DNA of 64,000 nucleotides from the NCBI GenBank assembly GCA_043827405.1, contig JBDRPD010000068.1, positions 1 to 64,000 of the forward strand. Direction: 5' to 3'. Below the pieces are notes generated by a model. It did no database searches. It was not told the DNA's origin and saw only the letters and a list, made by a program, of their open reading frames with translations. Below, piece after piece: positions 23,558-45,901 of this stretch; within the stretch, counting starts at the first letter, position 1; each line of letters opens with the position of its first letter. A program made the position numbers and the translations under genes. This DNA comes from Elusimicrobiota bacterium (GTDB lineage: Bacteria; Elusimicrobiota; Elusimicrobia; UBA1565).

Positions 23558-25545
23558 TGGGGATGGTTCGAGCGCTAATCTGTGTGCTCTGCGCGTTCAG
23601 CGGCCTGACGACGGCGCACGCGCAGTTGGCGGGGCAGGCCGTCCTGGTGCTGGATTCCTCCCGCAGCCCGCGCACTTCTTTCTCAACCAACGAGCGAGCC
23701 ACCTTCCAGCAGAAAGTCTCCAACGGCGCGGCCAGCAGCGGCCGAATCTATTTTACCTTCATCGTCGCCGATCCCCAGCTTAAGGAGGTGTTCCGGCATG
23801 CCGGCAATGCCGTTCCCGGCCGCGTCGGCAACGCCGCCAGCCAGCTGGCCGGCGTGCAGATCTCGTCGCTCTATACCGTGCCCGGCGTCTACAAGCTGAC
23901 CGCGCGCGCGATCCTGGACGCTCAGGTCGTCGACCAGGAGCTTTCTTTCACCGTTTCGTCGCCCAATATCCTGCTGATCTATCCGCCCAACGGCGCGCAG
24001 GACGTCGCCGACAAACCGTTGATGTTCCGCTGGTCATCAAGCGGGGCCGCCAAATATCGCATCACGGTCGGAGATAACCCGTCTTTCTTCAACTCCGTCT
24101 ACAACGCCAATACCGAAGGCAACGTGAACGCCATCAGCTATCCGGAGAACCCCGCCGATGCCCGGGCGCGGCTCGCGGCGGGCACGGTGTACTACTGGAG
24201 AATCGAGGGGCTGGACGCCAACGATAACGTCGTGGCGCAAAGCGCGGTTCCTTTCTCTTTCACCGTCAAGTCGGCGTCGCTGTCGCGCGATATCGCTGTG
24301 ACCGGGCTGGAGATTATCGGCAAGTCGGGCGATAATATTACCTTCAAGGTGACCGTGCATAACCAGGGGGGGACCAGCGAGAGCGGCCTGCAGCTCAAGT
24401 TCAGCATCGGAGGGGTCCCGGTGGCCGGCTCCCCCGTGCAGATGCCGCTGTTGTCACCGAGCGCAGTCAAGACCTACAACTTTACCGGGCAGCTCCCGCC
24501 CGACCAAGGCAAAAGCCTGGCCATCGGCTGCGTTGAGTTTTTCGACGATAATGTCGCCAACAACTGCAAGACGATGCAGCTGACGCGGACGGTGGAAGAG
24601 GCGGCCGGCGACGCGTCGATTTTCGCCGCGCGCAAGCTGTCGAACGAGGAGATCTGGAGCGCGATCCAAGAGCTGCTGCGCGATCGCGGCGTCGATCTGA
24701 CCGAGTACTCTATCGTCGGCATGGACAAGGACATGACGCGGGCCGAGCTTGAAGCGCTGCTGGCGGCGCTGCGCAGCGGCCAGGCGGATGTTTCCGTGAG
24801 CGGACCGGCGGGCGGCGCGGCGGACCTGCCGTCCTTCATCCCGCCGCCGGTTTCGGCGGGACCGCCGCCGGACGCGCCCGATGACCTGCCGGCGGACAAG
24901 GGCGAGGAGCGGATAATGACGGACAAGGAGCTGTGGCAGGCGCTGCAGCCGCCGCTCAAAGGACGCGGTTTCGACCTGACCCAGTTCGCGGTCCTCGGCG
25001 CCGACCGGCGGCTGACGGCCAGTGAGCTGCAGATTCTCTTGGCCGCGGTCAAAAGCGGCGTCGCCGAGATCCTGGTGTCGGGACCGGCGGCGCCCGATGT
25101 GATGCCTGTCGCGGCGGAGTCCGCGCCGCCGGCTGCCGCGCCGCCGCCTCCGGCGGCGGATGAAGACCGCCAGTGGCGGGGGCTCGCGCCGGCGCTGAGC
25201 AAGAAGACCGCGCACCTGAAAATCACATCGAACAAGCACTGGAGCAAGGTGTGGAAGCGCCTCGGTGGAAAGAAAACGCCGAAGATCGACTTTGCACAGT
25301 ACATGGTCATCGGCGTCGTCGCCGGCGGCGAGGAGCGATCCGACCGGGTTGAGATCGTCGAGGTTCGCAAGTCGCTTTCCGGCCTGCGGGTTCTCTACCG
25401 GCGGGTTGTCCACCGCCGTATGCTGGCGCCGCTGGGTCCGCAGCAGGCGGCGGCGCGCGATCTGGTGCCTTATCACCTGCGGGTGATCCCGAAGTCGGGG
25501 CTGAAGATCCGCTTTGAGCATGTTAGCGAAACAGGGGGGAGGTAA
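23557..25545 (+). CDS. Exported protein with Ig/FN3-like and CARDB domains, a duplicated ~58 aa unit, Pro-rich linkers and a PrcB C-terminal-like domain
   Basis: Signal peptide (..TTAHAQ). CARDB-like DIAVTGL...VTVHNQG...DDNVANN. PrcB_C-like WSKVWKR..PKIDFAQYMVIGV...PYHLRVIPK. ATG overlaps the stop of the giant gene. Confidence 0.7.
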   Translation: MGMVRALICVLCAFSGLTTAHAQLAGQAVLVLDSSRSPRTSFSTNERATFQQKVSNGAASSGRIYFTFIVADPQLKEVFRHAGNAVPGRVGNAASQLAGVQISSLYTVPGVYKLTARAILDAQVVDQELSFTVSSPNILLIYPPNGAQDVADKPLMFRWSSSGAAKYRITVGDNPSFFNSVYNANTEGNVNAISYPENPADARARLAAGTVYYWRIEGLDANDNVVAQSAVPFSFTVKSASLSRDIAVTGLEIIGKSGDNITFKVTVHNQGGTSESGLQLKFSIGGVPVAGSPVQMPLLSPSAVKTYNFTGQLPPDQGKSLAIGCVEFFDDNVANNCKTMQLTRTVEEAAGDASIFAARKLSNEEIWSAIQELLRDRGVDLTEYSIVGMDKDMTRAELEALLAALRSGQADVSVSGPAGGAADLPSFIPPPVSAGPPPDAPDDLPADKGEERIMTDKELWQALQPPLKGRGFDLTQFAVLGADRRLTASELQILLAAVKSGVAEILVSGPAAPDVMPVAAESAPPAAAPPPPAADEDRQWRGLAPALSKKTAHLKITSNKHWSKVWKRLGGKKTPKIDFAQYMVIGVVAGGEERSDRVEIVEVRKSLSGLRVLYRRVVHRRMLAPLGPQQAAARDLVPYHLRVIPKSGLKIRFEHVSETGGR

Positions 25546-25549
25546 AGTC

Positions 25550-26329
25550 ATGAGAAGAATAATGATGGGAATAGGAAGCCTGGCGGCCTGCGCGCTGCTG
25601 GTCGCGGCGTCGGCGCCGCCGGAGCTTCTGGCGCAGGGCAAGGAGGTTACCGCGGGCGTCGTCATCGACGTGCGCGGCAAACCGCGCATCGTGCGGCGTA
25701 AGGATGCGGCTGAGCTGGACGGCATATCGCGGGAGGACAAGGACAAGGCCGGCCAGCGGCTTAAGACGAACAAGTTCGTTTATGAGGGCGATGTGATCAT
25801 CACCGGCCGCAGCGACCGGGCGGCGGTCGCCTTCGTGGGCGGCGCCGAGGTCCGCATTAACTCGAACTCGGAGTTCGTCGTCGAATCGGGGGGGGGGCGC
25901 CGGCCGACAAGCCTGTTCACCCGGGTGGGGCAGGCCTGGACGCGGATGCTGCACGGCAAGTCGGGCATGAACATCCGCACGCCGCTGGCCGTGGCCGCGG
26001 TGCGCGGTACGGAAGCGGACGTGGACATGGGCCAGCGCCTGGACGTCAAGGTCTATGAGGGCCACGTTGATGTCTCAAACAAGTACGGCACTCAGACGCT
26101 GCGGGCCGGGATGATGACGTCGGTCTCGGGGCCGGGGGTCGCTCCGGCGGGCGCGCGCCGTATGGGCGAGGGCGATCAGGGCAGCTGGCAGAATGCGCTG
26201 CAGCCGAAAGCCATCGAGAAGAAGCTCCAGCGCCTGCAGCAGAAGGCGGACAAGGAGCGCAAGGTCCAGCTGAAGTACATGCAGGACGGCAAGCCGGAGG
26301 AGCTGAACCTGGAACTGGAGAAGAAGTAA
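25550..26329 (+). CDS. Exported FecR-domain protein
   Basis: GGAGG RBS before ATG 25550. Signal peptide. GDVIITG..RAAVAF..GAEVRINSNS and IRTPLAVAAVRGT...VKVYEGHVDV motifs. Confidence 0.85.
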   Translation: MRRIMMGIGSLAACALLVAASAPPELLAQGKEVTAGVVIDVRGKPRIVRRKDAAELDGISREDKDKAGQRLKTNKFVYEGDVIITGRSDRAAVAFVGGAEVRINSNSEFVVESGGGRRPTSLFTRVGQAWTRMLHGKSGMNIRTPLAVAAVRGTEADVDMGQRLDVKVYEGHVDVSNKYGTQTLRAGMMTSVSGPGVAPAGARRMGEGDQGSWQNALQPKAIEKKLQRLQQKADKERKVQLKYMQDGKPEELNLELEKK

Positions 26330-26362: not shown

Positions 26363-28294
26363 ATGCTGGACTTAAGACGCAGCGTACTCCCCCTAGGACT
26401 CGCCGCCGCCTGCCTGTGCCTCGGCTTCGCCGGGGCACAGGCGGCGGATTCGGCGAGTCTGCAATTTACCATCCCCGCGCCGAATCCCATCCAGGCCGGG
26501 GAGACGCTCGCCCTGCAGGCGCTGGGCGTCAATACCGGCGCCCAGACCTGGACCGCCGGCTCTTATTACTGGGTGGCGGAGGTTTACGACCTCGAATACA
26601 ACCTGGTGGCGCGAACCGATCAGGTCTCGCCGCCCGAGGACGTGCGGCGCGGCGCGGTGGCTTCGATATCGCTGTCGTTCCGGGTGCCGGAAACCTTGGT
26701 CGGGCGTCATCTTTACCGCATCTATCTGGTTAAGAATGCCCAGACCCTGATCGAATCGCAGTACACGCCGTTCCAGGTCCTGTATCGTCCTCTGCCGCCC
26801 AAGCCCAAGGTCGTCGACTACCGCGTTGAGGGCAATGTTACGGTTTCCTACAAGAATGTCCGGCGCAGCGGAGCATCCTCCGAGCATACCGGCGCCACAA
26901 CCATGAACGCCGTCGGCAAGATCAAGGAGTCCTCCTATCTATTTAACGCCTATATCCTGCATGAGCGAGGTCAGGCTTTTGATCCGTTTATCCTCCTCTT
27001 CACCTACTACGCGCCTTGGGGTACGGTGTACGGCGGGGACCTTACGCCGACCTTGAGCGAGCTGTCGGTCAACGGCCAGGGTTTCCGCGGCGTCATGCTC
27101 GAACAGCGGCGCGGGCGCTTCGATTGGACGGTTCTCGGCGGGCAGTCGATCGAGTCGCAGGCCGGCACTTCGGCGACCAACGGCCGTTTCGCGCGCACCC
27201 TTTACGCCGGCAAGCTCGGCATCGAGGCGGCGGAGTCGGTCAAGACCGCTCTGACCTACTTCCTGAGCGCCGACGAGCCGGGCTCGCTGAGCACCGACCC
27301 GGATTCCCCCAAGTACCGCGGTCCGTCTTTGACGCCGCAGAAGAACCAGGGCACGGGCGCGGCGCTTTCCTGGGAGCCGGTGGAAAAGCTCAAGCTCCTG
27401 GCCGATTATCAGAGCAATGCGTTTTTTGATGATTCAGCGGGCGCCAGCGTGAAGGATACCGCCTGGCGCGGAGAGCTGCGCTGGGAGCGCAGGTATTTCA
27501 AGTTCAAGAGCTCGCTGCAGGAGGCGGGGCCGGATTTCGTCGCCTTCGGCGCCCCGGGCATCGTCGGCGACCGGCGGACCTTCGCCGGCGGCCTGAGCCT
27601 CTATCCCGCGTCCTGGTACACGGTGACGCTCAACGGCACGCAGTACGAGGACAACCTCGACAATAATCCCGCGCGGGTGACGACCAGCCAGCGCGTGGTG
27701 TCGGTCGGTAATGCCCTGCAGCTCAAGACCGGTACCAACCTGAATGCCTCGATGACGATGAATACCGCCGAAGGCAAGCCCAAATCGGCGCTCGACAACC
27801 AGACCACGACCGCGGGTTTGGGCATCTCGCAGAGCCTGGGCCGCCATAGCGCGTCGCTTAACAGCTCGCTCAGCCAGTTCCGCGACAACAATAAGCTGGC
27901 CAGCGACCTGGATACGATGACCGTATCGCTCTCCGGCAGCTTCGTCCTTCCCAACCGCGCCAGCTGCTCGTTCGGCGTCACCCAGTCGGAGACCAAGGAT
28001 AAAGGGGACGGCTCGAAGCGCACCAGCCGCACGGTATCGCCCAGCTACTCGAAACGCTTTTCGAGCTCCTATGTCGTGCAGTTGTGGGGAACGCTCACGC
28101 AGACCCAAAACGACAATCCGCTTCTCGCGGCGGATACGCAGAACGTCGCGGCCAACTCCGAGCTGACCTGGGCGCAGTCCAACGTGCTGAACCTGACCTT
28201 CGGGCTCGGCTACAACAAAAACACCGATAAGATTCGCGCGAACAACAGCTACAACGAGATCGTCCTGTCCAGCCGGCTGTCCTACTCTTTCTAG
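26363..28294 (+). CDS. Putative outer-membrane beta-barrel protein with N-terminal Ig-like domain
   Basis: Signal peptide (AQAA), alternating amphipathic strands over the C-terminal ~450 aa, and terminal SRLSYSF (BAM beta-signal-like, final Phe). Confidence 0.75.
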   Translation: MLDLRRSVLPLGLAAACLCLGFAGAQAADSASLQFTIPAPNPIQAGETLALQALGVNTGAQTWTAGSYYWVAEVYDLEYNLVARTDQVSPPEDVRRGAVASISLSFRVPETLVGRHLYRIYLVKNAQTLIESQYTPFQVLYRPLPPKPKVVDYRVEGNVTVSYKNVRRSGASSEHTGATTMNAVGKIKESSYLFNAYILHERGQAFDPFILLFTYYAPWGTVYGGDLTPTLSELSVNGQGFRGVMLEQRRGRFDWTVLGGQSIESQAGTSATNGRFARTLYAGKLGIEAAESVKTALTYFLSADEPGSLSTDPDSPKYRGPSLTPQKNQGTGAALSWEPVEKLKLLADYQSNAFFDDSAGASVKDTAWRGELRWERRYFKFKSSLQEAGPDFVAFGAPGIVGDRRTFAGGLSLYPASWYTVTLNGTQYEDNLDNNPARVTTSQRVVSVGNALQLKTGTNLNASMTMNTAEGKPKSALDNQTTTAGLGISQSLGRHSASLNSSLSQFRDNNKLASDLDTMTVSLSGSFVLPNRASCSFGVTQSETKDKGDGSKRTSRTVSPSYSKRFSSSYVVQLWGTLTQTQNDNPLLAADTQNVAANSELTWAQSNVLNLTFGLGYNKNTDKIRANNSYNEIVLSSRLSYSF

Positions 28295-28321: not shown

Positions 28322-29260
28322 CTAGGGCCGCGGCTTCCTTCTCTGGCGGGTCGCGCGATTCGACGGGGTGTTCTTCTTGGGGGCGTTTTCGGCGCGCTGG
28401 GCGCGCGCGAGGAATTTTTGCAGCGTCTTGTCTTTGGGCGCCAGCTTGAGCGCCCGGCCCCATATCTGGCGCGCCTGCGGGTAGCGCTTCAGCTGGTAGT
28501 AGGCGGAGCCCAGGCGCTTAAGGGAGTCGATGTCGTTGGGCTCCAGCGCCAATACCTCGTTAAGCTGCTTGATCGCAAAATGGTATTTCCCGTCGTAGAT
28601 GTAGTCGAGGGCGATGACGCGCTTGTAGTCGATGAGCTTCATCCCGGGCGTAATCTTTTCGTCGGCCAGCGTCTTGTCTTCCTTAAGGATGAGCTGGAGT
28701 ATGAGGTCGAAGCGCTTCTCTCCGGCGTTGAGGTCTTTGGCGTGCCGCAGCCCGTTGTAGGCCAGCCGCAGATTGTCCTCGCGCGCGATGTAGCCGGTCA
28801 GCCCGCGCGCCGCGCGCACCCAGGCCTGCTGATGCGGGGCTTTTTTGATGACTTCGGTAAGTAGCTCCAGCCGGTTCTGCAGCTTTACATATAAGGGGTG
28901 ATCCGGATCGCGGCCCAGCAGCGGCTGCAGTTCGAGGTAGGCCGCCTGATAGTCGCCCTCGGCGACATTGTCGAACAGGCTGTCCTGCGCCTTCTTGTCG
29001 CGTTCGTCGATCTTTGTGCGGGCGTCGCGGATCATCTTCTCCGCGGTCTTCTGGTTGCGGTCGATCGCCAGAACTTCGTTCCATTCCTTTATAGCTTTCG
29101 TGAATTGGCCGGCGGTGTAGTATTCAAAGGCCTGTTTGTAGTGGCCCTTGAAATCCAGCAGCTCCTGCTTCTCATCGCTTGGGGCCGCCGTCACCGTCGC
29201 GGCACGGGCCGCGAGCGGAGCGGCGCAGAGCGCGGCCAGCAGCAGTGCCCGGCCTCTCAT
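28322..29260 (-). CDS. Exported TPR protein (~312 aa)
   Basis: ATG at 29260 overlaps the motB stop (ATGA). Signal peptide MRGRALLLAALCAAPLAARA. TPRs such as AIKQLNEVLALEPNDIDSLKRLGSAYY. Confidence 0.85.
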   Translation of the reverse strand: MRGRALLLAALCAAPLAARAATVTAAPSDEKQELLDFKGHYKQAFEYYTAGQFTKAIKEWNEVLAIDRNQKTAEKMIRDARTKIDERDKKAQDSLFDNVAEGDYQAAYLELQPLLGRDPDHPLYVKLQNRLELLTEVIKKAPHQQAWVRAARGLTGYIAREDNLRLAYNGLRHAKDLNAGEKRFDLILQLILKEDKTLADEKITPGMKLIDYKRVIALDYIYDGKYHFAIKQLNEVLALEPNDIDSLKRLGSAYYQLKRYPQARQIWGRALKLAPKDKTLQKFLARAQRAENAPKKNTPSNRATRQRRKPRP

Positions 29261-29907
29261 TTGCTGCGCATCTCCCGGATGATCGTGATTTCGATGCGGC
29301 GGTTCTTGCGGCGTCCCGGTACGGTGTCGTTGGGCGCCGCCGGCCGGTATTCGCCGTAGCCCCGGGCATGGAACCGCTCGGGCGCCAGACCTTGGCGGGA
29401 AAAGTAGCGGATCACCGAGAAGGCCCGGGCGGCGGAAAGCTCCCAGTTGGTGCGGTGCTCGCCGCGCCGGATTGGCCGGTCGTCGGTGTGGCCTTTCACG
29501 ATAACGGCGTTGGGCACGTCGGCGAGTAGCCGTGCCAGCGGCAGCAGCACGCCCGCGCCGCTCCGGCTGAGCCGGCCGGAGCCGAAGCGGAACAGCACCG
29601 GGCTGGGCAGGGTGATGTGGATGTAGTGGGCGGTAATGCGCAGGCCGAAGTCCTTGAGCGCCAGCCCCTCCATGAGGTCTTTTACATCGGAGGCCAGTTC
29701 CGCCTGGCGCAGGTTGATCGCGGCGGCCTCGGCGCTCTCGGCGCTGGCCAGGACCTGCTCGATCTTGCGCAGCGTCTTCTCCATCCCGGCGGCGTTGTTG
29801 AAGGAGTAGGCAAAGAGCGCGAGAAACAGGATCATAAGGATGGTCATGAGGTCGGCGTAGGGCACCATCCACAGCCCGGTAGCGTCCCTGCTGCCGCCGG
29901 TGCTCAT
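29257..29907 (-). CDS. motB: MotB-family stator subunit 2 (TM + OmpA-like peptidoglycan-binding domain)
   Basis: WMVPYADLMTILMILF with the conserved Asp; GHTDD, NWELSAARA, GYGEYRP, NRRIEI. Confidence 0.92.
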   Translation of the reverse strand: MSTGGSRDATGLWMVPYADLMTILMILFLALFAYSFNNAAGMEKTLRKIEQVLASAESAEAAAINLRQAELASDVKDLMEGLALKDFGLRITAHYIHITLPSPVLFRFGSGRLSRSGAGVLLPLARLLADVPNAVIVKGHTDDRPIRRGEHRTNWELSAARAFSVIRYFSRQGLAPERFHARGYGEYRPAAPNDTVPGRRKNRRIEITIIREMRSK

Positions 29908-30584
29908 CCCTCCGCTCCCTGACGCAGAATGACGATCTCGACGCGCCGGTTGCGCGCGCGATTGCCGCTGCTGTCATTGGGCGCGACGGGATGGAACTCG
30001 CCGTAGCCCGCCGCTACCAGCCGCGCCGGCGCGACGCCTTCGGCGATGAGCCGTTCGATGACGGAGTACGAGCGCGCCACCGACAGTTCCCAGTTGCTGC
30101 GAAAGCGCATCCTGGTGACGGGGATATTGTCGGTATGGCCTTCGATCACGACCTCGTTCGGGATGGTCTTGAGGACCCCGGCGAGGACGCTGAGCGTGCC
30201 GCCGGCGCGCGGGTCGAGCTGCGAGCGCGCGGTTTTGAACAGGAGGTTTTCGCGCAGGCGGACGCGGACCGCGGTCTCGGTCTCAAGAACCTCGGCCGCA
30301 TCCTGCAGCCCCTCTTCCTTGAGCAGGCGGCGCAGCCGCTCCGCCGTTTCGGCGGCGGGGGGCGTCGGCGGCTCATCCGGCGTGATCTCCTGAGGGGGTT
30401 CGATGATCTCTTTGACGGCGAAGGTGCGGACGAACTCCGCCCGCTGGTCCTCCGGCTGATAGGTGTAGGAGAACATCATGAGAAAAAACAGCATCAGGAT
30501 GGTCATCATGTCGCACAGGACGACGAGCCAGATCGGGTTCTTGTCTTCGCTTTGCGGACGGGTGTAGCGGTCGAGCAGGCTCAT
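29904..30584 (-). CDS. motB: MotB-family stator subunit 1
   Basis: WLVVLCDMMTILMLFF with the conserved Asp; EGHTDN, NWELSVARS, GYGEFHP, NRRVEI. Confidence 0.92.
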   Translation of the reverse strand: MSLLDRYTRPQSEDKNPIWLVVLCDMMTILMLFFLMMFSYTYQPEDQRAEFVRTFAVKEIIEPPQEITPDEPPTPPAAETAERLRRLLKEEGLQDAAEVLETETAVRVRLRENLLFKTARSQLDPRAGGTLSVLAGVLKTIPNEVVIEGHTDNIPVTRMRFRSNWELSVARSYSVIERLIAEGVAPARLVAAGYGEFHPVAPNDSSGNRARNRRVEIVILRQGAEG

Positions 30585-31372
30585 GACGGGACCTGGTAGT
30601 CCTTGGCCCCGCTGCGCCGCAGCTCAAAAGTGAGATAGGCTTCCAGCTTCTTGGCGATAAGCCAAGGCGCTTCACCGTCCTGCATGGCGAGGATGCCCTG
30701 GGCGATGAGCTCGCGCGCCAGAACCTCCTCGTCGGAGTAGAACGTCAGCTTGTTGGAGATCGGCAGGAACAGGAAATTCGCCGCGAAGATGCCGTAGAAG
30801 GACGCCGTCATGGCCACCGCCATCTTGCGGCCGATGAGCGAGGGCGTCGATATGTTCTTGAGGACGGCGACCACCCCGATCAAAGTTCCCAGCAGGCCGA
30901 AGATGGGCGCGAAAGTCCCGGCCGAGCGGAAGACGCCGCTGATCTGGTCGTGGCGGTGGCGGGTAGCCAAAATATCGCGCCGGCAGCGCTCCGCTACCGT
31001 TCCCTTGTCGAGCCCATCGAGCAGCATCTGGATGCAGTCCTGCATAAAAGGGTGGGGCAGGCTTTTGAGCTCCGTGCCCAGGGAGTCGATTCCCTGGCGG
31101 CGCGCCTTTTCGGACAGCCGGACGAAGGTGCTGATCAGGTGATTGGGCTGCGGGCGCTTGGGCGGGATGACCATCATCTTCACCGCGCTCGGGATATGTC
31201 TGAGGGCGGACGCCGGGTAGCTGATGAGCACGGAGCCGAGAGTGCCGCCGAAGATCAGGACGATGGCCTCCGGGTTGAGCAGGAACTGAACCATGTCGCT
31301 GACGATGAGAACGAATAGAATCACGCCGAGCCCCACCGTGGCGCCGATGATGGTCATGAAATCGATTCGCAT
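30581..31372 (-). CDS. motA: MotA/PomA-family stator subunit
   Basis: MDFMTIIG-like start, IFGGTLG, ARRQG, PF...DG, APIFGLLGTLIG, MAVAMTASFYG..AN..FLP. Confidence 0.93.
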   Translation of the reverse strand: MRIDFMTIIGATVGLGVILFVLIVSDMVQFLLNPEAIVLIFGGTLGSVLISYPASALRHIPSAVKMMVIPPKRPQPNHLISTFVRLSEKARRQGIDSLGTELKSLPHPFMQDCIQMLLDGLDKGTVAERCRRDILATRHRHDQISGVFRSAGTFAPIFGLLGTLIGVVAVLKNISTPSLIGRKMAVAMTASFYGIFAANFLFLPISNKLTFYSDEEVLARELIAQGILAMQDGEAPWLIAKKLEAYLTFELRRSGAKDYQVPS

Positions 31373-31378
31373 GAGGCG

Positions 31379-33082
31379 CTACGGCGCGGAGCCGTCCTCC
31401 GGTTGCTCGAAGCGCCGCGGCCGGATGCCGGGTTCGCTGTCGAGCGGTTCGTCGTCGTCGATGTCGAAGTCGTCCGCGGGCGGTTCCTGCCGCGCGGCGG
31501 GCCGCGGCCGGGGCCGCGCCTTGGGCGCCGGCGGTGCGGCGGCGGGAGAGCGTTCCGGTTCAGAGGCGGCATGCAGCCAGGACTCATCCACCTCTTCGTC
31601 GGTGTCCGTGCCTTCCAGCTCCTCGTCGTCCATGACGGCGGCGACGGGCGTGCCCGCATCGGCATCGTCGCGCCGCAGGATGATCTCGCCGTCGCGTACC
31701 AGCCGGGTGAGCGCGGAGAGCACCGTCTTCTGCTCGGCCGCCAGCATGCCGGGCGGCAGGTCCTGGGACAGCTCGATCTCCTGGGTCAGCCATTGTCCCA
31801 GACCGGCGGTCAGTTTCGGCAGCAGGCGGCCCTGCAGATCCTGGTTGCCCTTGAGGACCGCCGCGATGCTCTTGAGCTGCACGCTGCGCGACAGCGTCTT
31901 CAAGTCGTCGCCGCCGAGCAGCGCCAGGTCCTCCAGCGTCACCAGGCGGCGGCCGAGGCGGCGGCCGAGATCGGGGTCCTTGCTGGCGAGCGCGCTGATG
32001 AGCTCCTCCTGCATCCCGGCGGGTACTTCCTCGAGGATGGCCGCGAGCTTGTCCTCGCCGCCCATCAGATAATTGATTTTCTTGAAGACGTTGGCCTCGA
32101 CCGCCTTGACCTCGGTCTCCTCCAGCTGCGTTACGCGGCTCATATAGCGGATGACCTCGCGGCGCTTGTCTATCTTCAGGCCGACCAGAATCTGCGCGGC
32201 AAGACGCGGCGGCAGATAATGCGTGATGACCGCGGTGGTGCGCGGCGTCATGCGGCGCATGAGATGCGCCAGCATCGGCAGGTTCTTCTCGCTGACGAAG
32301 CCGAACGGCAGCTTCTCCCGCTCGGCGCCATGGGCATGCCCGTTGCCGTTGGAGGTCTTCGCGCCGTTGGCGAGTTTGGGGGCCTCCACCGCCGCCGCGG
32401 CCAGCCGCGGGATTTCCGTTCCGGACGGCGGCGGCTCATGCTTGGCGGTGGACCAGTGCGTCAGCGCCTCGCTCGCCAAACGGATGATCGGCCGGGCAAA
32501 GCTGATATAGGCGAGGAGCATCCCGCATAGCGCGGAGAGGAGCCACAGTATGGAGATGATGGTCTGCGGCCGGAGCAGGTCGCCGCCCCAGGCCGAGTCC
32601 CTGAAGGCGCCGGCTGCTGCTGCTGCGCCTTCGGCGCCGGCCTCGCGCCGCATGCGGAGCTTCTCGATGAGGAAGCGGTCGCCCCGCGCCTTGTCGAGGC
32701 CGAGGATGTCATTGGCGGTGCGCTCGATGAGCTCAAGGTCCTTCGGCGGCGTATTATGTTCGACTATGACGACCGCCGACAGGCTCTTGAGCATGGTCAT
32801 CGCGATGCCGCCCGTGGTCGGCGTATTTGGCGCGGGGACGCCCGGCATCAGCTCGTCCTCGAGCTCTTCGGCGCTGTAGAGCTCGGCCTTGACGATGACG
32901 ATGACGTCGTCGGTCCCCAAGGCTTTTTGCAGCACGGTCAGCAGGCGCTTTTCGAGGGAGGCTTCGAGGGCGATTTTCGTCTCGATGGTCTGGGAGGGGG
33001 ACGCGGACGCGGCATAGGCTTCGCCCGCCAGCGCCGGCAGCAGGCAGAAGCATGCGATAAGTAGGTTCCGCAGTCTTAACAT
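31379..33082 (-). CDS. fliG: FliF-like ring domain + TM + FliG middle/C-terminal fusion protein (~567 aa)
   Basis: Signal peptide from ATG 33082. FliF-C/SpoIIIAG-like LEKRLLTVLQKALG..DVIVIV..LKSLSAVVIV..GLDKARGD. One TM. FliG-like PFGFV..TAVITHYLPPRLAAQIL..MGG..LAAIL..DPDL..TLEDL..LKG..EQK.VL..L.RL..GEI. Confidence 0.8.
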   Translation of the reverse strand: MLRLRNLLIACFCLLPALAGEAYAASASPSQTIETKIALEASLEKRLLTVLQKALGTDDVIVIVKAELYSAEELEDELMPGVPAPNTPTTGGIAMTMLKSLSAVVIVEHNTPPKDLELIERTANDILGLDKARGDRFLIEKLRMRREAGAEGAAAAAGAFRDSAWGGDLLRPQTIISILWLLSALCGMLLAYISFARPIIRLASEALTHWSTAKHEPPPSGTEIPRLAAAAVEAPKLANGAKTSNGNGHAHGAEREKLPFGFVSEKNLPMLAHLMRRMTPRTTAVITHYLPPRLAAQILVGLKIDKRREVIRYMSRVTQLEETEVKAVEANVFKKINYLMGGEDKLAAILEEVPAGMQEELISALASKDPDLGRRLGRRLVTLEDLALLGGDDLKTLSRSVQLKSIAAVLKGNQDLQGRLLPKLTAGLGQWLTQEIELSQDLPPGMLAAEQKTVLSALTRLVRDGEIILRRDDADAGTPVAAVMDDEELEGTDTDEEVDESWLHAASEPERSPAAAPPAPKARPRPRPAARQEPPADDFDIDDDEPLDSEPGIRPRRFEQPEDGSAP

Positions 33083-33252
33083 AGCAATAGAATTCCCAAT
33101 CCGTGCCCGCAATCCGGCACGAATCGGCGTTGAAGCGCTTCGTTCCAATAGTAACAGCGGGCTGTTACGATTTCAAGACTGCGTTAACAAGGATTTAACA
33201 CGCAAAAATAAGCCTTTTCTTTCGACTGCGAGGAGGGAACGTGAAAAAGCCT

Positions 33253-33564: not shown

Positions 33565-36231
33565 TTATATATCTGTCGGCGGGTGCGCGCCAACCGGGTC
33601 CGGCGGCTTGCTGCGCGGCGCGAGGGTGTCGGTGAAGAAGCCGCGCACGCCGCGCTGGGCGAGGCGCTCCGCCAGCTTCTCGTCGTTGACCGTATGGGCG
33701 TAGACGAAGATACCCATGGCGCTGAGCCGCTGCGCCAGGTCCGACTCCAGCGCCCGCTGGACCGGCATGGCCACGGCGTAGAGCTCGTTGTTCTCGGCGA
33801 ATGTCAGGACCTGTTCGTCCGAGGCGCCCGAGCGGTAGAGCGTGAGGATGATCCGATCGTAGCCCAGGTAGCGGACCTTGCGGTATTCGCTGAGGCGGTA
33901 GATTTGGGCGATGAAGCGGCCGATCAGTTCCGGATTCTGCCGCCACAGCGTATTGAGCGCGCGGTGGTTGTCGTTTTTGACGTCGGTCACGATCTGGGCT
34001 TGCGGATGGGCGGTGAGCCAGCGCAGGAGCGCGTCCGGCGTCAGCGGCGTCAGGCCGCCCCGCATCTTCAGCTTCACGAACTCATCCGCGCCGACGCGGT
34101 CCCGGCGCCCGAAGAGGCGGGAATACGTTTTTTGCCAGTCGTGCAGCAGGACGTAGCGTCCGTCCGCCGCCAGCTCGAAGTCCAGCTCAAAGAAGCGGTG
34201 CCCGCGCTGGTGATAGCTTTGCTCCAGCGCCTCCAGGCTGTTGGTGTAGATCTCGCCGTTTACGGCACCGCCGGCATGGGCGATCCATTTCGGCGGCCGG
34301 GTCTTCGCCGCTGCCGGAGCGCCGTCCGGATAGACGTCGGCCGGCCGGGAGATCCGATCGCGCAGGCTGGTTACCAGGTAGGCCGCCAGCGCCTCGTCGG
34401 CGAAGCTCTCGAGCCGGGCGCCGCGCTGCTCCGGCAGCGGACGACGCTTTTCCGGCGCATGGTCGCGCAGGAGGTCGCCGTCGAGCGTGAAGGCGGCGTG
34501 TCGGGACGGGGTGAACATCCCGCGCTGCGCCTCCGGCCGGAACGGGAAGTGATCGTTGTAGAGCACGGTTTCGGCGTCGTAGAGATAGGCGTCGGCGAAG
34601 CGCAGGTTCCAGCGCTCGTCGTGCAAAGTGAAGACGAACGGCTCGGCCGCCGGCGGGCGCAGAAGGCTGCGGCCCAGGAAGGAGTGCTTGGCGCGCAGGC
34701 CGAGGAAGTCCAGCACGGTGGGGGCGACATCGAGGTGGCTGGCCAGCCGGCCGTCGGCGCCCGGAGCGACGTTTCCGGGCGACCATAGGAGCAGCGGCAC
34801 CCGGAAGAATATCTCCTGGCGCGCGGCGTTGTCGAGCGCGGCGTCTTGCGGGAACAGCATCATGCCGTGGTCGCCGGTTACGACAAAGAGGGTGTTTTTG
34901 GCCCACGGGCGCCGGCGAACCTCCTGGAAGAACTTCCCGAGCGCGTGGTCGGTATAGTAGATGCCCTGAGTGTAGGCCTGATAGAGCGGGTCGCCCCGGA
35001 CGCGCGGGGTGCGTCTTTTCGTCGGGTAATCCCATTGGTAGGGGAAATGGTTCGTGAGCGTGAGGATCTCGGCGAAAAAGGGTCCGGTTTCCCGGTCGAG
35101 GATATTGAGCGCGAAATCGAATAGATTCTCGTCGGAGGGGCCGGGGCCGAGCCGGGGGAGCCCCGAGCCGTAGGTCGAATGGAAGTGATCGACGCCATGG
35201 CGCGACAGGAAGGACTTTTTGCTGCCGAACGTGGGCGGATAGGAGCTGATCCAATGGCTGCGGTAGCCCGCGCGCTTCAGGATCGCCGGCAAAGTGACGA
35301 CCGCTTGCGCGGGGTTGCGCACGTAAGTCGCGCCGCCCGCGTAGTTGGGCATGTAGGAAGCGTGGAGCGCATACTCGGACTTCGTGGTCTGCGAGGCGTT
35401 GGCGTAGAAGGTCGAGAACAGCCGCCCCTCTTTCGCCAGCCGGTCAAAATTAGGGGTGAAGGATGGGCGCGCGCCGTAGGCTCCCGATTCGAAGGCGCGT
35501 ACGGATTCGAGGAGGACCAGCACCACGTTCATCTTTTTCGCGCCCGGGGCTTGCGCCGGCGGCGCGTCGTCAAGCGGCGTCGTCTCGAACGGGAAGCTCC
35601 GGCCGCCTGTCCGGCGCCGCCGCGCGCGGTCCAGCGGCTGATAGCGGTCGGCGTCGGCGGCGATGCGGGCGAGCTCGCGGCCGCCGGACCAGTTCAGCTG
35701 CGCGACGCGCGCCGCCTGGCGGAAGGGGAAGAAGAAGGGGTTGTTCTCGGCGAATAGAAAGCCGGGCCGCGCGGCGGCGGCATGCAGCGCGAGCCCGAGA
35801 GCGGCCGCCAGCGCCAGCCGCAGGGCCGCGCGCGAGCGCGGCGCCGGAGCGAAGGAGCGGGCGGCCCAGGCCAGAGCCGCGGGCAGCGCGAGCCCGAGGA
35901 TCATATCCGCCGGCCTGAGCAGGGCGCGGATGCCGTCGAGCGCGATCGGCATTTCGGAGCGGTGAAGCAGAATTTCGAAATGCGCCCAGGAGCCGAAGAC
36001 CCGGTGATAGACGACCTCGCCGGTGAAGTAGAGGGCGCAGGATGCGGTCAGCGCCAGCCGCGCCAGGGGCTTGGCGGTCGCAAGGAAGAGAGCGAGAAAC
36101 AGCAGCGCGAAGGCCGCGTGATCGATGAGTCCCGTGAAGTTCGGGATGATCCGCATGCTCGCCGCCGAATAGAAGAGCAGGGCCGCGGGGACCGCGGCGA
36201 CCGCCGCCCATTCAGCCCGGCGGGGCTTCAC
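33565..36231 (-). CDS. LTA synthase (LtaS/OpgB, sulfatase fold) family protein fused to a glycerophosphodiester phosphodiesterase (GDPD) domain
   Basis: About 5 N-terminal TMs. NVVLVLLES, TPNFDRLA, QTTKSEY, TNHFPY, TGDHG, VPLLLW, SHLDVAPT. C-terminal IAHAGG..TNSLEAL..ELDF..HD..AHTVND..GFFTD. Confidence 0.85.
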   Translation of the reverse strand: MKPRRAEWAAVAAVPAALLFYSAASMRIIPNFTGLIDHAAFALLFLALFLATAKPLARLALTASCALYFTGEVVYHRVFGSWAHFEILLHRSEMPIALDGIRALLRPADMILGLALPAALAWAARSFAPAPRSRAALRLALAAALGLALHAAAARPGFLFAENNPFFFPFRQAARVAQLNWSGGRELARIAADADRYQPLDRARRRRTGGRSFPFETTPLDDAPPAQAPGAKKMNVVLVLLESVRAFESGAYGARPSFTPNFDRLAKEGRLFSTFYANASQTTKSEYALHASYMPNYAGGATYVRNPAQAVVTLPAILKRAGYRSHWISSYPPTFGSKKSFLSRHGVDHFHSTYGSGLPRLGPGPSDENLFDFALNILDRETGPFFAEILTLTNHFPYQWDYPTKRRTPRVRGDPLYQAYTQGIYYTDHALGKFFQEVRRRPWAKNTLFVVTGDHGMMLFPQDAALDNAARQEIFFRVPLLLWSPGNVAPGADGRLASHLDVAPTVLDFLGLRAKHSFLGRSLLRPPAAEPFVFTLHDERWNLRFADAYLYDAETVLYNDHFPFRPEAQRGMFTPSRHAAFTLDGDLLRDHAPEKRRPLPEQRGARLESFADEALAAYLVTSLRDRISRPADVYPDGAPAAAKTRPPKWIAHAGGAVNGEIYTNSLEALEQSYHQRGHRFFELDFELAADGRYVLLHDWQKTYSRLFGRRDRVGADEFVKLKMRGGLTPLTPDALLRWLTAHPQAQIVTDVKNDNHRALNTLWRQNPELIGRFIAQIYRLSEYRKVRYLGYDRIILTLYRSGASDEQVLTFAENNELYAVAMPVQRALESDLAQRLSAMGIFVYAHTVNDEKLAERLAQRGVRGFFTDTLAPRSKPPDPVGAHPPTDI

Positions 36232-38859: not shown

Positions 38860-39636
38860 CTAGTTGTAGATTCCGGTCGACTGCCGGATCAGGTGGAAGG
38901 CGGTGGGAATGCCGCTGTTCGCCGGCAGGCGGCGGATATCGGTTACGTCGGACTGGTAGAAAAGGAGGACTTTGCGCACGTAGTGGCGCGTTTGCCGGTG
39001 CCAGCGGTTGCGGTACAGAAAGCGCGGGCCGGCATTGTAGGCCGCGACGACGCGCTGTACGACCCATACCGGCGCGTCCTGGTAGCGGACGCCCTTGAGG
39101 TTGTACTTGCGCCAGGCGCGCTGGAATAGATGCTCGACGTATTTCGCGCCGGCGCGGATATTGGCTTCCGGGTCGGTCAGCTGCCCCGGGGAGACTCCCA
39201 TCTCCTGGGCGGTGTGCGGCATGAGCTGCATGAGCCCGATGGCTCCGGCCGGCGAGCGGGCGCTGCGGTTGAACTCGGATTCGGCCGCGATGATGGACTT
39301 GAGCAGGCGCGGATCGAGACCGTGCAGGTGCGCGTATTTGAGGATCAGCTGGTCGTAGCGGTCGGTGATCTGCGGGCGGCCGCGCAGAACGCGGAACGTC
39401 CGGCGGTAGGCGCGCGAGGCCTTGGGCGACGGGATGACCTGCGGATGGCGCGTGCCCTTGAGGGTTTTGGGTTTGCACAGGTCGCGCGGAACGCTGGCAT
39501 AGGCCAACAGCACGGACCGCGAACGAGCCTTCTGCGGAGAAGGCGCGCTTTCGGCGCGGTCCTGGGATAACGCGGTGTTGAGCGGGGAGAGGGAGAGTAT
39601 CCCGACCAGAGTTATACGAGCGCTACGTCTTAACAC
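38860..39636 (-). CDS. Lytic transglycosylase (SLT domain)
   Basis: AESEFN, SPAGAIGLMQLMP.TA, NIRAGAKY, AAYNAGP; signal peptide. Confidence 0.93.
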   Translation of the reverse strand: MLRRSARITLVGILSLSPLNTALSQDRAESAPSPQKARSRSVLLAYASVPRDLCKPKTLKGTRHPQVIPSPKASRAYRRTFRVLRGRPQITDRYDQLILKYAHLHGLDPRLLKSIIAAESEFNRSARSPAGAIGLMQLMPHTAQEMGVSPGQLTDPEANIRAGAKYVEHLFQRAWRKYNLKGVRYQDAPVWVVQRVVAAYNAGPRFLYRNRWHRQTRHYVRKVLLFYQSDVTDIRRLPANSGIPTAFHLIRQSTGIYN

Positions 39637-40108: not shown

Positions 40109-40196
40109 TTCCAGGCTGAACTCTCCTTCGTCTGTTCAGCAAGCAACCGTCATTGCCGCGTTGACGCATTAATACGTTTGCCGATTGGAGTCAGAG

Positions 40197-41468
40197 ATGA
40201 ACATACGCATCCGATGCATCGAATTATCGATCCTGCTAGCGGCGCTGGCAGCCGGATATTCAGCCGCCGCTGAGACAGCGCCTGAGCCTATCGCTGTAAA
40301 TGCGCTGGTTGAACAAGCGCTCAATGCCAATCCCGGTCTTAAGGCGGCCCGCCAAAGGTGGTCCGCTGAGCTGGAGCGGCCGGCGCAGGCCAAGGCGCTT
40401 CCCGATCCCCAGCTGACCGTCTCGCAGATGACGGAGAAGCTGGAGACCCGTGCCGGACCGCTGCAGGGAAAGGTCGGGGTGTCGCAGCGCTTCCCGTTCT
40501 TTAGGAAGCGTGCGCTTCAGAGTGAGACCGCGTCGTGGGAGGCCAAGGTCGCGGAGGCGGCCTATCGCTCCGCCCAGCTTAAAGTCCGCGCTCAGGTCAT
40601 CGGAGCCTACTACGACCTGTACTATCTGAATCGAGCGGCGGATATCCTGGGAGAACAGGTCGGCTTCCTGCGGCATTTCGCCCGCGTGGCGGAGAAAAAA
40701 TACGCGGTCGGCAAAGGCGCGCAGGCAATGGTTTTTCGCGCCCAGGCCGAGCTGTCCCGCCTGCAGAACGACGTGATCACGGCGGAGCAGGAAGCCAAGA
40801 GCGTGCGGGCGCGGCTTAACGCTTTGCTTAACCGCAAGCCGTGGGCGGAGGTCGGAAAGCCGCAGGCGCCGGAGTTTCCCAAGCTCCGCTGGGAGGTCGA
40901 GAAGCTGAGGGAGCGGGCGCTGCGGGAGCGACCCGAGCTCCAGGCGCTGGCGGCGCTGGAGGGGAAGACGGAGGCGCAGAGGAAGCTGGCGTTCAAGCGC
41001 TTCTTCCCGGACTTCCTCGTCGGCTACGAGTGGACGCGCATCGGCGCGGGGACGACGATGTCTTCATTCGACGGCAAGGACGCGCATGGACTGTCGATCG
41101 GGCTGAACCTGCCGATCTGGGGCGGTTCTCTTAAGGCGGCGCATAGGGAAGCTGAAGCCCGCGAAAAGGCCGCTTCGCTGAGCAGGGCGGATCTCGTCAA
41201 CCGTACGTTGGCGGAGCTCGAGGACCTCGCGGTCCGCGCCGAGACCTCGGTGCGTCTGGCCAAGGTTGACGAGGAGTCGATCCTGCCGCAGATTCGCGCG
41301 GCTTTGCAGTCGACGCTGAGCGGCTACGAGTCCGACGCCGTGGGCTTTCTGGATCTACTGGATGCCGAGCGGGCGCTGCTTAATCTCGAGCTCGGGCATG
41401 AACGGCACAAGGTGATGTTCCATCAGGTCGTCGCCGAATTGGAGCGTGTTGTCGGGGGGGAGATATGA
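40197..41468 (+). CDS. TolC-family outer-membrane efflux protein (CusC-like role)
   Basis: Signal peptide; AL.ANP.LKAA, LPDPQL, SQRFPF, LNLPIW, FLDLLDAER. Confidence 0.9.
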   Translation: MNIRIRCIELSILLAALAAGYSAAAETAPEPIAVNALVEQALNANPGLKAARQRWSAELERPAQAKALPDPQLTVSQMTEKLETRAGPLQGKVGVSQRFPFFRKRALQSETASWEAKVAEAAYRSAQLKVRAQVIGAYYDLYYLNRAADILGEQVGFLRHFARVAEKKYAVGKGAQAMVFRAQAELSRLQNDVITAEQEAKSVRARLNALLNRKPWAEVGKPQAPEFPKLRWEVEKLRERALRERPELQALAALEGKTEAQRKLAFKRFFPDFLVGYEWTRIGAGTTMSSFDGKDAHGLSIGLNLPIWGGSLKAAHREAEAREKAASLSRADLVNRTLAELEDLAVRAETSVRLAKVDEESILPQIRAALQSTLSGYESDAVGFLDLLDAERALLNLELGHERHKVMFHQVVAELERVVGGEI

Positions 41469-42556
41469 AGCCTGGAAAAATAATCGCGGTATTTGTCGTG
41501 GCGTCGGCAATCTTCGGCGCCGCCTGCGGCAAGAAGCAGGACGTCATTAAGGAGCATGACGGTCAAAAAACGGCCAAGGCCGAGAAAAAAGCCCTGTATC
41601 ACTGCCCCATGCACCCGACCTATACGTCGAACGAGCCGGGCGAGTGCCCGATCTGCGGCATGAACCTGGTGCCGATCGAGGATGACGAGGGCGGCGTTGA
41701 TAAGCATGCGGAGCATCAGGTGGAAGGCCAGTCGCGCGTAAAGGTGGATTCCCGGCGCCGCCAGCTTATCGGTCTAAAGACCGCGGCCGCGGCCGAGCGC
41801 CATATGGTCAAGGTGATTCGATCGGTCGGTCGGGTGGCCTACGATCCGGAGCTTTACCGGACGCAGGAGGAGTACCTGACGGCCTTGGGGAGCTATCGCA
41901 AAATCAGCGCCGGAGGCAGTCCGGAGGCGGCGCAGCGGTCAAAGACCTTGCTCGAATCGAGCAAGCTGCGGCTGAAGATTCTGGGGATCTCGGAGGGGCA
42001 GATCGAAGAGCTCGCCAAGCGCGGCAAGCCTGAAGTGAGCCTGCTGCTGGCGCAGGGCAAGGGCTCTACGCCCTGGCTCTACGCCGATGTCTACGAGAGC
42101 GATCTCCCGGTAGTGCGTGTCGGCCAGGCGGTCAAGGCCGTCTCCTCTTCATTGCCCGGCGAGGTGTTCGAGGGACGGATCAAGGCCATCGATCCGACGA
42201 TCAATCCGAAGACGCGGTCGGTCCGCATCAGGGTCCAGCTCGACGATGCCAAGGGCCTGCTCCGTCCCGATACCTACCTCAATGCGCGCATCCAGGTCGA
42301 CATGGGGAAGCGGCTCGCGATTCCGGCCGAGGCGGTGGTGGACACCGGCGTGCGGCAGGTCGTCTTCGTGGATGAGGGAGAGGGCTATATCACGCCCCGC
42401 ATCGCCGTGCTCGGCGTCCGCGATGATGAGTTCGTCGAAGTTCGGGAAGGCATTGCCGAAGGCGAGGCAGTCGTGACCAGCGGCAATTTCCTTATCGACT
42501 CAGAGTCCAAGCTTAAGGCGGCTATCGCGGCTATCGCCGGCGGCCACCAGCACTAA
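41465..42556 (+). CDS. cusB: CusB-like RND membrane fusion lipoprotein with a heavy-metal-binding domain
   Basis: Lipobox (GAAC); YHCPMHP...PGECPICGMNL; IDP.INPKTR, FLIDSES. Confidence 0.9.
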   Translation: MKPGKIIAVFVVASAIFGAACGKKQDVIKEHDGQKTAKAEKKALYHCPMHPTYTSNEPGECPICGMNLVPIEDDEGGVDKHAEHQVEGQSRVKVDSRRRQLIGLKTAAAAERHMVKVIRSVGRVAYDPELYRTQEEYLTALGSYRKISAGGSPEAAQRSKTLLESSKLRLKILGISEGQIEELAKRGKPEVSLLLAQGKGSTPWLYADVYESDLPVVRVGQAVKAVSSSLPGEVFEGRIKAIDPTINPKTRSVRIRVQLDDAKGLLRPDTYLNARIQVDMGKRLAIPAEAVVDTGVRQVVFVDEGEGYITPRIAVLGVRDDEFVEVREGIAEGEAVVTSGNFLIDSESKLKAAIAAIAGGHQH

Positions 42557-42574
42557 CGGCTGGAGAGTGATGCC

Positions 42575-45500: not shown

Positions 45501-45901
45501 CGCTGGCCGGCGTCGACGCCGAGACCGGCGTGGTCATGCTCCTGTATTTGGACCTCGCCTATGCGGACTGGATCAAGAAGGGAAAGATGAAGACCTTGGA
45601 GGATCTGGAAGAGGCGGTCATGCACGGCGCGGTCAAGCGCATCCGGCCCAAGATCATGACCGTGGGGACGACGTTTCTGGGTCTTCTTCCCATTATGTGG
45701 GCGGCGACGCATGAGGCGGGCGCCGACGTGATGAAGCGCATCGCCGCGCCTATGATCGGCGGCATCTTCACATCTTTTATAATGGAGCTTATGATCTATC
45801 CCGCCATCTATACGGTATGGAAGTGGCGTTTCGAGATGAAAGAGGGCGCGGTGACTAATGAGAAGCTTTTGCCTGTTGATTCAACGGCTGAAATATCTTA
45901 A
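42575..45901 (+). CDS. cusA: CusA/CzcA heavy-metal RND permease (Cu/Ag type)
   Basis: DAIPDLSDVQVI, GPDATGVGWV, AIGAMVDAAI.MVENAHK, GSEFMPPL.EGDLLYMP, PAPLSM.ET. Confidence 0.95.
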   Translation: MINRIIAWCATHRFFVYLGTAFAVVWGFFAMKNIPLDAIPDLSDVQVIVFTEWPGRSPDIVEDQITYPIVTAMVAAPKVKVARGYSFLGLSFVYIIFEDGTDIYWARSRTLEYLSKIRGSLPDKVNPVMGPDATGVGWVFEYALVDKSGQNSLADLRSFQDWYLRYWLESVKGVAEVASIGGFVKQYQVEIDPDALLAHNIPFSQVGMAIKRSNNDVGGRVLEMSEKEYFVRGRGYIKSLKDVENIPLGVDENGVPVLVKHVARVHFGPQMRRGAAELDGEGEVVGGVVVMRFGENALAVIDRVKKKLEEVKGSLPPGVELVTTYDRSDLIHRAISTLKHKLTEEMLVVALVIMMFLLHFRSALLPVIMLPIAALLSFIPMYHLGLSSNIMSLGGIAIAIGAMVDAAIIMVENAHKHLEEWEHEGKKEDIGKVLIRATQEVGRPIFFSLLVIAVAFMPVFTLEAQAGRLFKPLAFSKNFSMFFAALLAVTLVPVLMQSLLRPVRELSLRPAWLGKIVNFFWAGTIYREDKHPISKVLFRIYEPILRWILQRRKAAIAVSIALILSTIPVYLQLGSEFMPPLNEGDLLYMPTTLPGISIEAAKTWLQQQDKLIRTFPEVERVFGKIGRARTPTDPAPLSMVETTVKLKPQKNWPPVHHDRWYSGWAPGWLKHGLGIVWPEMKSRTWEELIKALDHEVKMPGTTNAWTMPIKTRIDMLTTGIRTPIGIKVFGPDLARIQQIGEHIEGVLPRIEGTRSVYAERVTGGYFIDFEVRREEAARYGLTVGDVQDVIEAGIGGKDVTTTVEGRERYPVNVRYSRELRDDLNKLKRVLVQTPTGAHVPIAQLADIKVNTGPPAIKDENGMLTGWVYVDIVPERDIGSYVKEAKALVAKEITLPAGYYLSWSGQFEYMEQARKRLLVILPLTVLIILLLLFLNTGSWVKTAIVFLAVPFSLIGVFWLLFILDYNMSIAVWVGVIALAGVDAETGVVMLLYLDLAYADWIKKGKMKTLEDLEEAVMHGAVKRIRPKIMTVGTTFLGLLPIMWAATHEAGADVMKRIAAPMIGGIFTSFIMELMIYPAIYTVWKWRFEMKEGAVTNEKLLPVDSTAEIS

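Follow-up and report, generated by a model that had tools for sequence, protein, structure and literature searches.

The window analysed here is a 64-kb stretch of DNA from an Elusimicrobiota bacterium, and the system in question is an operon of five minus-strand genes, coding for a single-chain FliF-FliG rotor, the stator proteins MotA, MotB1 and MotB2, and an exported TPR protein, together with plus-strand genes beside it. An earlier reading made from the letters alone (the sequence-only reading) had described five coupled minus-strand genes with ATGA overlaps and a 6-bp gap before motA, and both coordinates and junctions agreed with ours, the overlaps being read from the sequence at the motA/motB1, motB1/motB2 and motB2/TPR gene junctions. 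The features of the operon are listed below. Positions within ring-building motif 3 (RBM3) and the FliG middle and C-terminal domains (FliG-M/C) are residues of the 567-aa fusion unless model numbering is stated, and signal peptides were called by eye from sequence.

31379-33082, minus strand: rotor fusion gene (567 aa), a single-chain rotor with a signal peptide, RBM3 (about 27-145), one transmembrane helix (TM; about 175-193, by hydropathy), FliG-M/C (271-469) and an acidic disordered tail
32834-32848, minus strand: MPGVP (LPGxP) motif in an insertion of RBM3, aligned with the rod-gripping FliF loop
Fusion/motA junction: 6-bp gap
30581-31372, minus strand: motA (263 aa), flagellar-type, retaining R91, the basic residue for torque, and the two prolines, with Gly99 at the place of E. 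coli Glu98
29904-30584, minus strand: motB1 (226 aa), TM with Asp25, plug and OmpA-type peptidoglycan-binding domain
29257-29907, minus strand: motB2 (216 aa), TM with Asp19, plug and OmpA-type domain
28322-29260, minus strand: TPR gene (312 aa), an exported protein with TPR repeats (Pfam), homologous to the C-terminal domain of PorV-TPR fusions in paralogous modules

In the rotor fusion, Pfam matched FliG_M at residues 271-336 (E 2.8e-9) and FliG_C at 364-469 (E 3.3e-10), and the single sequence gave a weak match to YscJ_FliF_C at 96-140 (E 0.052). When a profile of 77 sequences of the N-terminal domain was used, FliF chains were matched at E 5.5e-11 and 2.2e-9 and SpoIIIAG at 3.1e-5, and 57 of the 77 profile members matched YscJ_FliF_C at E<=0.01. 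The AlphaFold model of the fusion (78-row alignment, mean pLDDT 84.9, pTM 0.49) showed the FliF RBM3 fold at model residues 4-119 (Z 14.4, root-mean-square deviation (rmsd) 2.2 Å, 99 residues aligned) and matched FliG at model residues 233-448 (Z 15.7, rmsd 5.2, 215 aligned), and the ring proteins SpoIIIAG and PrgK/EscJ matched the rotor RBM3 more weakly than FliF did, with Z 8.9-9.5. Neither RBM1, RBM2, a second TM nor the FliG N domain was found in the fusion, where FliG-M is preceded by RBM3 and one TM alone. The fusion thus has a signal peptide followed by the C-terminal half of FliF (RBM3 and TM), which is joined to a FliG that lacks the N domain. The sequence-only reading had proposed this order, with a FliF-C/SpoIIIAG-like segment after the signal peptide, and profile and structure match alike identified that segment as RBM3.

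The comparison drew on a phylum sample of 201 genomes and on a locus set made of 80 of about 170 FliG_C places in relatives, hand-picked for spread, plus four from the genome of the window. RBM3, TM and FliG-M/C were present in 85/85 fusions tested, with one cut locus and one flagellar FliG excluded. Within 6.5 kb of the 86 fusions, the distance used for the counts of fusion neighbours below, lay a barrel gene in 73, motA in 61, a gene with a C-terminal sorting domain (CTD) in 55 and a histidine kinase in 20, four of these fused in frame. In a quick FliG tree, used for subtype grouping only, the window grouped with ten loci of several classes (SH-aLRT 90), and the order fusion-motA-motB-motB-TPR was found in 11/11 loci of this subtype, which bears out the conservation of the cluster. 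A scan with the 11-sequence subtype alignment gave 21 loci, all titled Elusimicrobia/Elusimicrobiota or Endomicrobiales, with motA reached in 16, the TPR gene in 15 and the barrel in 11. A library search with a limit of E<=1e-10 returned 940 representatives, which may include some FliF; among the best 150 matches, 121 had RBM3 and FliG and 28 more were incomplete. Ten library matches were checked for other phyla, and those named with a taxon were Elusimicrobiota; the range outside the phylum is given by ESM Atlas cluster labels only (Cloacimonadota, Bdellovibrionota, Balneolota, Myxococcota), which serve as leads.

No other place in the fusion was as conserved as the LPGxP motif, with P in 78/78 rows of the alignment and G in at least 90%. 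PGxP occurred in 63 of 85 fusions and PG in 20 more. In hhalign the motif fell on the LPGALSNQ stretch of FliF P0180 (probability 97), which residue counting on the profile-matched FliF chain placed inside Salmonella P309-N324. That segment of Salmonella FliF is described as a loop binding the rod, and such loops as carrying torque. Loss of the EHPQ motif was considered as proof of lost FliM binding and rejected, as 3/5 canonical FliG controls deviate too.

The stator is of the flagellar type, as the sequence-only reading had it. The MotA of the window matched Pfam MotA_ExbB (E 5e-22), the NCBIfam flagellar MotA/PomA families (E 7e-57 to 1e-52, against 0.036 for ExbB and 0.046 for TolQ) and MotA/PomA chains of the PDB (E 9e-51 to 4e-42); the stator scores lay under the NCBIfam equivalog cut-offs yet far above ExbB/TolQ. 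Both MotB proteins matched MotB_plug and OmpA (Pfam). Charge-pair positions were mapped onto our alignments through sequence motifs and PDB alignments. The rotor-stator pairs are given as R90/D288-D289 and E98/R281 (PMC12505986). Among 60 MotA proteins, both prolines were present in all, position 90 was basic in 41 and position 98 was Glu in 14. On the rotor side, position 288 or 289 was acidic in 75/86 fusions, and position 281 was basic in 17/86, in 0/11 of the window subtype and in 5/5 canonical FliG. In the window motor the first pair is retained (R91; Q434/E435) and the second is lost in both partners (G99; G427); the single flagellar MotA control likewise lacked Glu98.

The ion-binding Asp was found in 40/40 loci with a single MotB. 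Loci with two MotB numbered 38, or 34 after subtraction of four probable duplicates (L132, L141, L144, L152), and among the 34 there were 19 Asp/Asp, 13 Asp/Asn, one Asp/Ala and one Gly/Asp, so that the first MotB carried Asp in 33/34. Asn at the MotB2 site with the Asp of the first MotB intact is seen, for example, in L002, L099, L104 and L114. This residue pattern would suit a MotB1/MotB2 heterodimer like the one modelled for AglQ/AglS.

The system is not a flagellum, as the defining parts were looked for and are absent. No match to FHIPEP (FlhA), FliMN_C, Flg_bb_rod, Flagellin_N or FliP was found in the whole genome, which is 97.97% complete, and each of these profiles was positive in 4/14 known genomes used as controls. 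The absence of flagellar genes that the sequence-only reading had reported for the 64 kb thus extends to the genome. FliG_C matched six times in it, namely in five RBM3-bearing fusions and one stand-alone FliG_C of 87 aa (G000:C99:20211-20474), the latter lying among integrase- and transposase-like open reading frames (ORFs). Across the phylum sample, FliG_C was found in 71/201 genomes (52/76 genera) and MotA in 73/201, with nearly the same distribution over families; two large families of small genomes had FliG in 0/59 and 1/63 and MotA in 0/59 and 0/63. The FliP check covered the 71 FliG_C-positive genomes, with a match in five and none in 66. That the operon is the remnant of a lost flagellum, or belongs to one whose remaining genes were missed, draws on the flagellar homology of all core parts, on FliP in those 5/71 genomes and on FlbD in one paralogous module. 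Such an origin is already largely refuted, and we give it almost no credence: five paralogues are intact in the genome, the subfamilies are old and span classes, the partners (the TPR protein and a 643-aa barrel) are dedicated and non-flagellar, and genome G064 retains a canonical FliG beside two fusions. In addition, an export gate cannot be housed, because RBM1/2 and FliG-N are absent.

The TPR protein of the window matched three paralogues in the genome (phmmer E 2e-21, 2e-18 and 7e-12). A TPR domain of this kind lay near 81/86 fusions, and a PorV-TPR fusion beside 61/86. The TPR domain was found in 7/7 fusion-bearing genomes tested, the seven from which the profile was built, and gave a weak match in one of 37 fusion-free genomes, though all 37 have PorV genes. 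The TPR domain is a dedicated motor part, because it adjoins 81/86 fusions and occurs in 1/37 genomes without a fusion. The sequence-only reading had proposed a minimal, self-contained motor with a TPR partner; the TPR protein has turned out to be a dedicated part, and the motor has proved neither minimal nor self-contained, given the PorV-TPR fusions beside most rotors.

The following plus-strand genes lie just outside the five motor genes to which the sequence-only reading had confined the module, a limit that did not hold.

26363-28294, plus strand: 643-aa outer-membrane protein, an N-terminal Ig-like domain and a beta-barrel of about 26 strands, dedicated partner of the window subtype
25514-26329, plus strand: FecR-domain protein (Pfam FecR E 4e-13) with a signal-peptide-like N-terminus, in 8/11 clade loci
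23557-25545, plus strand: exported multi-Ig (CARDB) protein (Pfam CARDB E 2.7e-7), in 8/11 clade loci
83-23557, plus strand: ORF of 7,824 codons with Kelch, FG-GAP, G8/beta-helix and fn3 repeats and a C-terminal sorting domain like type A of type IX secretion systems (T9SS)

The 643-aa barrel belonged to no Pfam or NCBIfam family. Its model (pLDDT 84) showed the Ig-like domain and about 26 strands, counted by hand, and its nearest fold was MtrB (Z 22.2, rmsd 4.3, 440 aligned). Among the matches listed there were 33 of full length in 31/201 genomes, all 31 positive for FliG_C and MotA; at least 23 of the 33 had a motor gene no more than about 6 kb away, 10 of those 23 having built the profile. 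In the window subtype the barrel gene occurred in 10/11 loci, six times on the strand of the motor genes. The sorting domain of the giant ORF scored 38.1 bits with TIGR04183 (cut-off 23), making the ORF a probable surface cargo, and a CTD gene was present in 8/11 loci of the clade. At its start (window 83-1400) this ORF encodes a multi-pass membrane protein portion of about 400 residues, with TPR repeats, that continues in frame into the secreted repeats, either by a true fusion or through a lost stop. In this module the giant ORF is followed by CARDB, FecR and barrel genes instead of PorV. Since the subtype carries barrel, FecR-like, CARDB and CTD genes beside the motor, the unit spans 83-33082, beyond the five motor genes.

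Such a wide barrel could also speak for an energiser of uptake in the window subtype, in which the ring, like TonB, pulls a plug (the TPR, FecR-like or Ig domain) from the barrel and so imports large substrates that the giant surface protein has cut. The barrel has no built-in plug, and its fold is nearest to MtrB and TonB-dependent receptors; fold scores of large barrels, however, reflect size and not function, and a TPR domain and rotor of the same kind go with PorV-family barrels in the majority of paralogues. We hold this role to be very improbable.

The same genome carries paralogous modules and parts like those of a T9SS. Four of its five fusions are accompanied by motA/motB. At C49, C54 and C42 the order was giant CTD protein, PorV-family barrel-TPR fusion, rotor fusion, optional coiled coil, motA and motB. 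At another locus, G000:C52:14007-16033 (L004), the rotor fusion is accompanied by a short TPR gene, but motA and motB are missing from the vicinity. A sixth PorV-TPR gene (G000:C23:19993-21972) lies 470 bases short of a contig end, and no rotor fusion was seen adjoining it. The module at C49 has a cyclic di-GMP (c-di-GMP)-I riboswitch before the PorV-TPR gene (L001:5821-5897), flbD before motA (G000:C49:13949-14125) and a gene for a 732-aa coiled coil; the window itself has neither FlbD nor this riboswitch. A SprA/Sov homologue of 1,909 aa was found at G000:C17:8074-13803 (L036; TIGR04189 E 1.6e-42, 145 bits against a cut-off of 200). PorV-family matches numbered 30, one PorV-TPR fusion reaching 104 bits with NF033709 (cut-off 90), and there were 26 CTD genes, 23 of them with a PorV-like gene directly after them and the giant ORF of the window among the three exceptions. 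GldL, GldM, GldN and Peptidase_C25 (PorU) gave no match in the genome in searches where no control genome rose above cut-off and which left GldK outside. Across the phylum, SprA was found in 176/201 genomes, including 57/59 and 42/63 of the two MotA-less families, and PorV in 44/44 genomes tested, with 2-38 PorV-family genes per genome. Judging by these sequence matches, a T9SS-like export system is present outside the Fibrobacteres-Chlorobi-Bacteroidetes (FCB) group.

These parts bear on the main rival explanation, a secretion helper. The pull of the motor would thread or free particular giant CTD cargo at the SprA-like translocon, replacing GldLM/GldKN, without setting that cargo in lasting motion. 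It is in keeping with a genome that has SprA-like, PorV-family and CTD genes yet no match to GldL/GldM/GldN (in searches with no true positive control), and with the size of motor-linked cargo, which is among the largest (7,824; at least 6,155; 3,109; at least 2,534 aa). On the other hand, cargo of at least 5,597 and of 3,589 aa is paired with plain PorV. As SprA and PorV persist in genomes without the motor, general export is independent of it, which counts against the motor as a general energiser of secretion. Taken together, we regard the helper as rather unlikely.

In some loci the rotor is preceded, in the same reading frame, by a histidine kinase (TM, HisKA, HATPase) fused to it, namely at G000:C42:20691-23174 (L003:8692-11175), L044, L047 and L058, and nine more kinase-rotor fusions occurred among the 150 library matches. 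Together with the kinases near 20/86 fusions, the FecR domain in the window subtype and the loss of one torque charge pair, they could be read as signs of a load sensor across the envelope, in which drag on an adhesin shifts the state of ring or stator and is read by the kinase or the FecR-like protein, so that the motor serves signalling. Yet 66/86 fusions have no kinase nearby, none was found in 11/11 loci of the window subtype, and the FecR protein starts with a signal-peptide-like stretch and not with a cytoplasmic anti-sigma domain. This explanation appears distinctly improbable.

The motor fusion, its stators, the barrel and the giant exported protein point to a machine, so far undescribed, for moving or handling proteins of the cell surface. 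By analogy with FliF, SpoIIIAG and engineered FliF-FliG fusions, the fusion would oligomerise to one ring, with RBM3 outside the inner membrane and FliG-M/C inside. MotA5 with a MotB1/MotB2 heterodimer anchored on peptidoglycan would turn the FliG ring, presumably one way, since there is no FliM/FliN switch. The LPGxP loops, whose homology to the FliF loop is seen, would grip the periplasmic TPR domain, a partner suggested by co-occurrence: the grip motif is retained without a rod, which implies another shaft, and the TPR domain may be that shaft because it is the only partner present almost everywhere. In most paralogues the TPR domain is covalently tied to a PorV-family barrel of the outer membrane; in the window subtype the separate TPR chain would be coupled to the 643-aa barrel, as gene linkage suggests. 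Barrel, FecR-like and CARDB proteins would hold the giant adhesin exported via the SprA-like translocon, in the manner of CTD-PorV pairs and of SprB-SprF. The motor would then turn or drag the adhesin on display, and the likeliest purpose is movement over a surface or the working of a surface to which the cell is attached.

That an active ion-driven ring motor works on an outer-membrane barrel is, in our judgement, highly probable. That its job is to move a displayed surface adhesin, the reading we prefer, has a probability of roughly 0.45. FlbD and the c-di-GMP-I riboswitch of the paralogous module would suit a motility or attachment trait. More tentatively still, the system may be a third surface-motor architecture, in which a one-gene FliF-FliG rotor driven by MotAB turns T9SS-exported giant adhesins via TPR shaft and barrel and lets most free-living Elusimicrobiota, and perhaps other phyla, move without flagella, with the wide barrel as the shaft bushing in the window subtype.

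Several points weigh against the movement of an adhesin. All named loci come from metagenome-assembled genomes (MAGs), with no isolate among them. The MotA Glu98/FliG Arg281 pair is mostly gone (Glu98 in 14/60, basic 281 in 17/86). The module contains no P/L-ring bushing and no conserved wall hydrolase to take a shaft through peptidoglycan, and no track proteins like those of Flavobacterium or Myxococcus gliding were identified. Furthermore, motA was missing near 25/86 fusions and a CTD gene near 31/86, some of these loci being cut by contig ends, and the histidine kinases near 20/86 fusions, four in frame, are superfluous to the model. The fusions without stator genes may share stators. Correlated distances among rotor, stator and TPR protein (rho 0.59-0.68, 48 loci) were discounted as evidence, since they follow from linkage.

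In the surroundings of the operon, a sigma70-like site at 33148-33176 (minus strand), 66 bases 5' of the fusion start, is a consensus match alone, and three such sites were observed in the region against 0.9 expected in shuffles. An Rfam scan of the window gave no match. The gene for a 100-aa zinc ribbon upstream was excluded from the unit, as it had no match in 84 other loci. An ORF at window 38860-39636 (minus strand), 5.8 kb upstream of the operon, has a lytic-transglycosylase-like motif by eye. A sulfatase-GDPD membrane fusion at 33565-36231 (minus strand), and a CusCBA-like efflux trio and a multi-haem cytochrome (both by eye) at 40185-45901 (plus strand) and 49102-50706 (minus strand), are unrelated neighbours.

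FliG is regarded as belonging to flagella alone, and the 5:2 motors known besides MotAB do without it. A natural FliF-FliG rotor that is conserved and rich in paralogues, and that comes with flagellar-type stators where there is no flagellum, suggests that the torque core can be an independent module. The five genes are a minimal system at hand for the study of ring size, switch-free rotation and the two-MotB stator. If the third architecture holds true, it would be the earliest known natural case of a FliG rotor outside flagella and would provide, in living form, a model of the motor core stripped of the rest. Counting FliG in MAGs should not be equated with counting flagella. Non-flagellated Elusimicrobiota have been described in one preprint as having many motAB, flbD and fliG homologues of unclear role (10.1101/2022.07.08.499144), and the present system offers an answer to that role. 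It also places T9SS-like parts in a phylum beyond the stated range of T9SS (PMC11285876). In a literature search that left most subscription journals outside, no publication on the rotor fusion, the operon or the barrel link was found, and the accessible parts of PMC12204202 and PMC13277936 held nothing on this system.

The system is real, conserved and, taken as a whole, unlike any described one; the output given here is a proposal. It shares with the flagellar motor core the RBM3 fold, FliG-M/C, a MotA of the flagellar type, a MotB that has Asp, plug and OmpA domain, the rod-gripping loop motif and, in one paralogue, FlbD. It differs in being a natural single chain with a short beta-collar and no FliG-N, in which a signal peptide replaces TM1, RBM1 and RBM2, and in lacking a switch, an export gate, a rod, a hook and a filament; it also has two MotB, partners of the TPR and barrel kind, and several paralogues per genome. 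Engineered FliF-FliG fusions are reported to form rings (PMC11481574). SpoIIIAG and the rings of type III secretion systems (PrgK/EscJ) likewise have a stand-alone ring-building motif related to RBM3, but neither FliG nor a stator. MotAB homologues have been divided into flagellar and generic types (PMC12505986), and unlike the generic 5:2 motors ExbBD, TolQR and AglRQS, which use a TonB, TolA or GltG transducer, the window motor has FliG and an A subunit that is not of the ExbB/TolQ type. The Agl-Glt machinery of Myxococcus resembles it in a pentamer for which two B subunits are predicted to form a heterodimer and in passing force to outer-membrane barrels and a surface adhesin (PMC11761067), whereas its AglRQS is TolQR-like, its transducer is GltG and it has no FliF/FliG ring. 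With T9SS and gliding of Bacteroidota, where SprB-SprF is described as moved by GldLM (PMC9143113), it has in common a SprA-like translocon, cognate CTD-barrel pairs, giant repetitive surface proteins and an ion-driven 5:2 motor acting across the periplasm; here, by contrast, GldL/M/N are without a match, MotAB acts on a FliF-FliG ring of the inner membrane, and the translocon persists where the motor was lost. It is not a full T9SS, whose motor ring was not found in searches that lacked a control; rather, it is flagellum-like at the inner membrane and T9SS-like at the outer.

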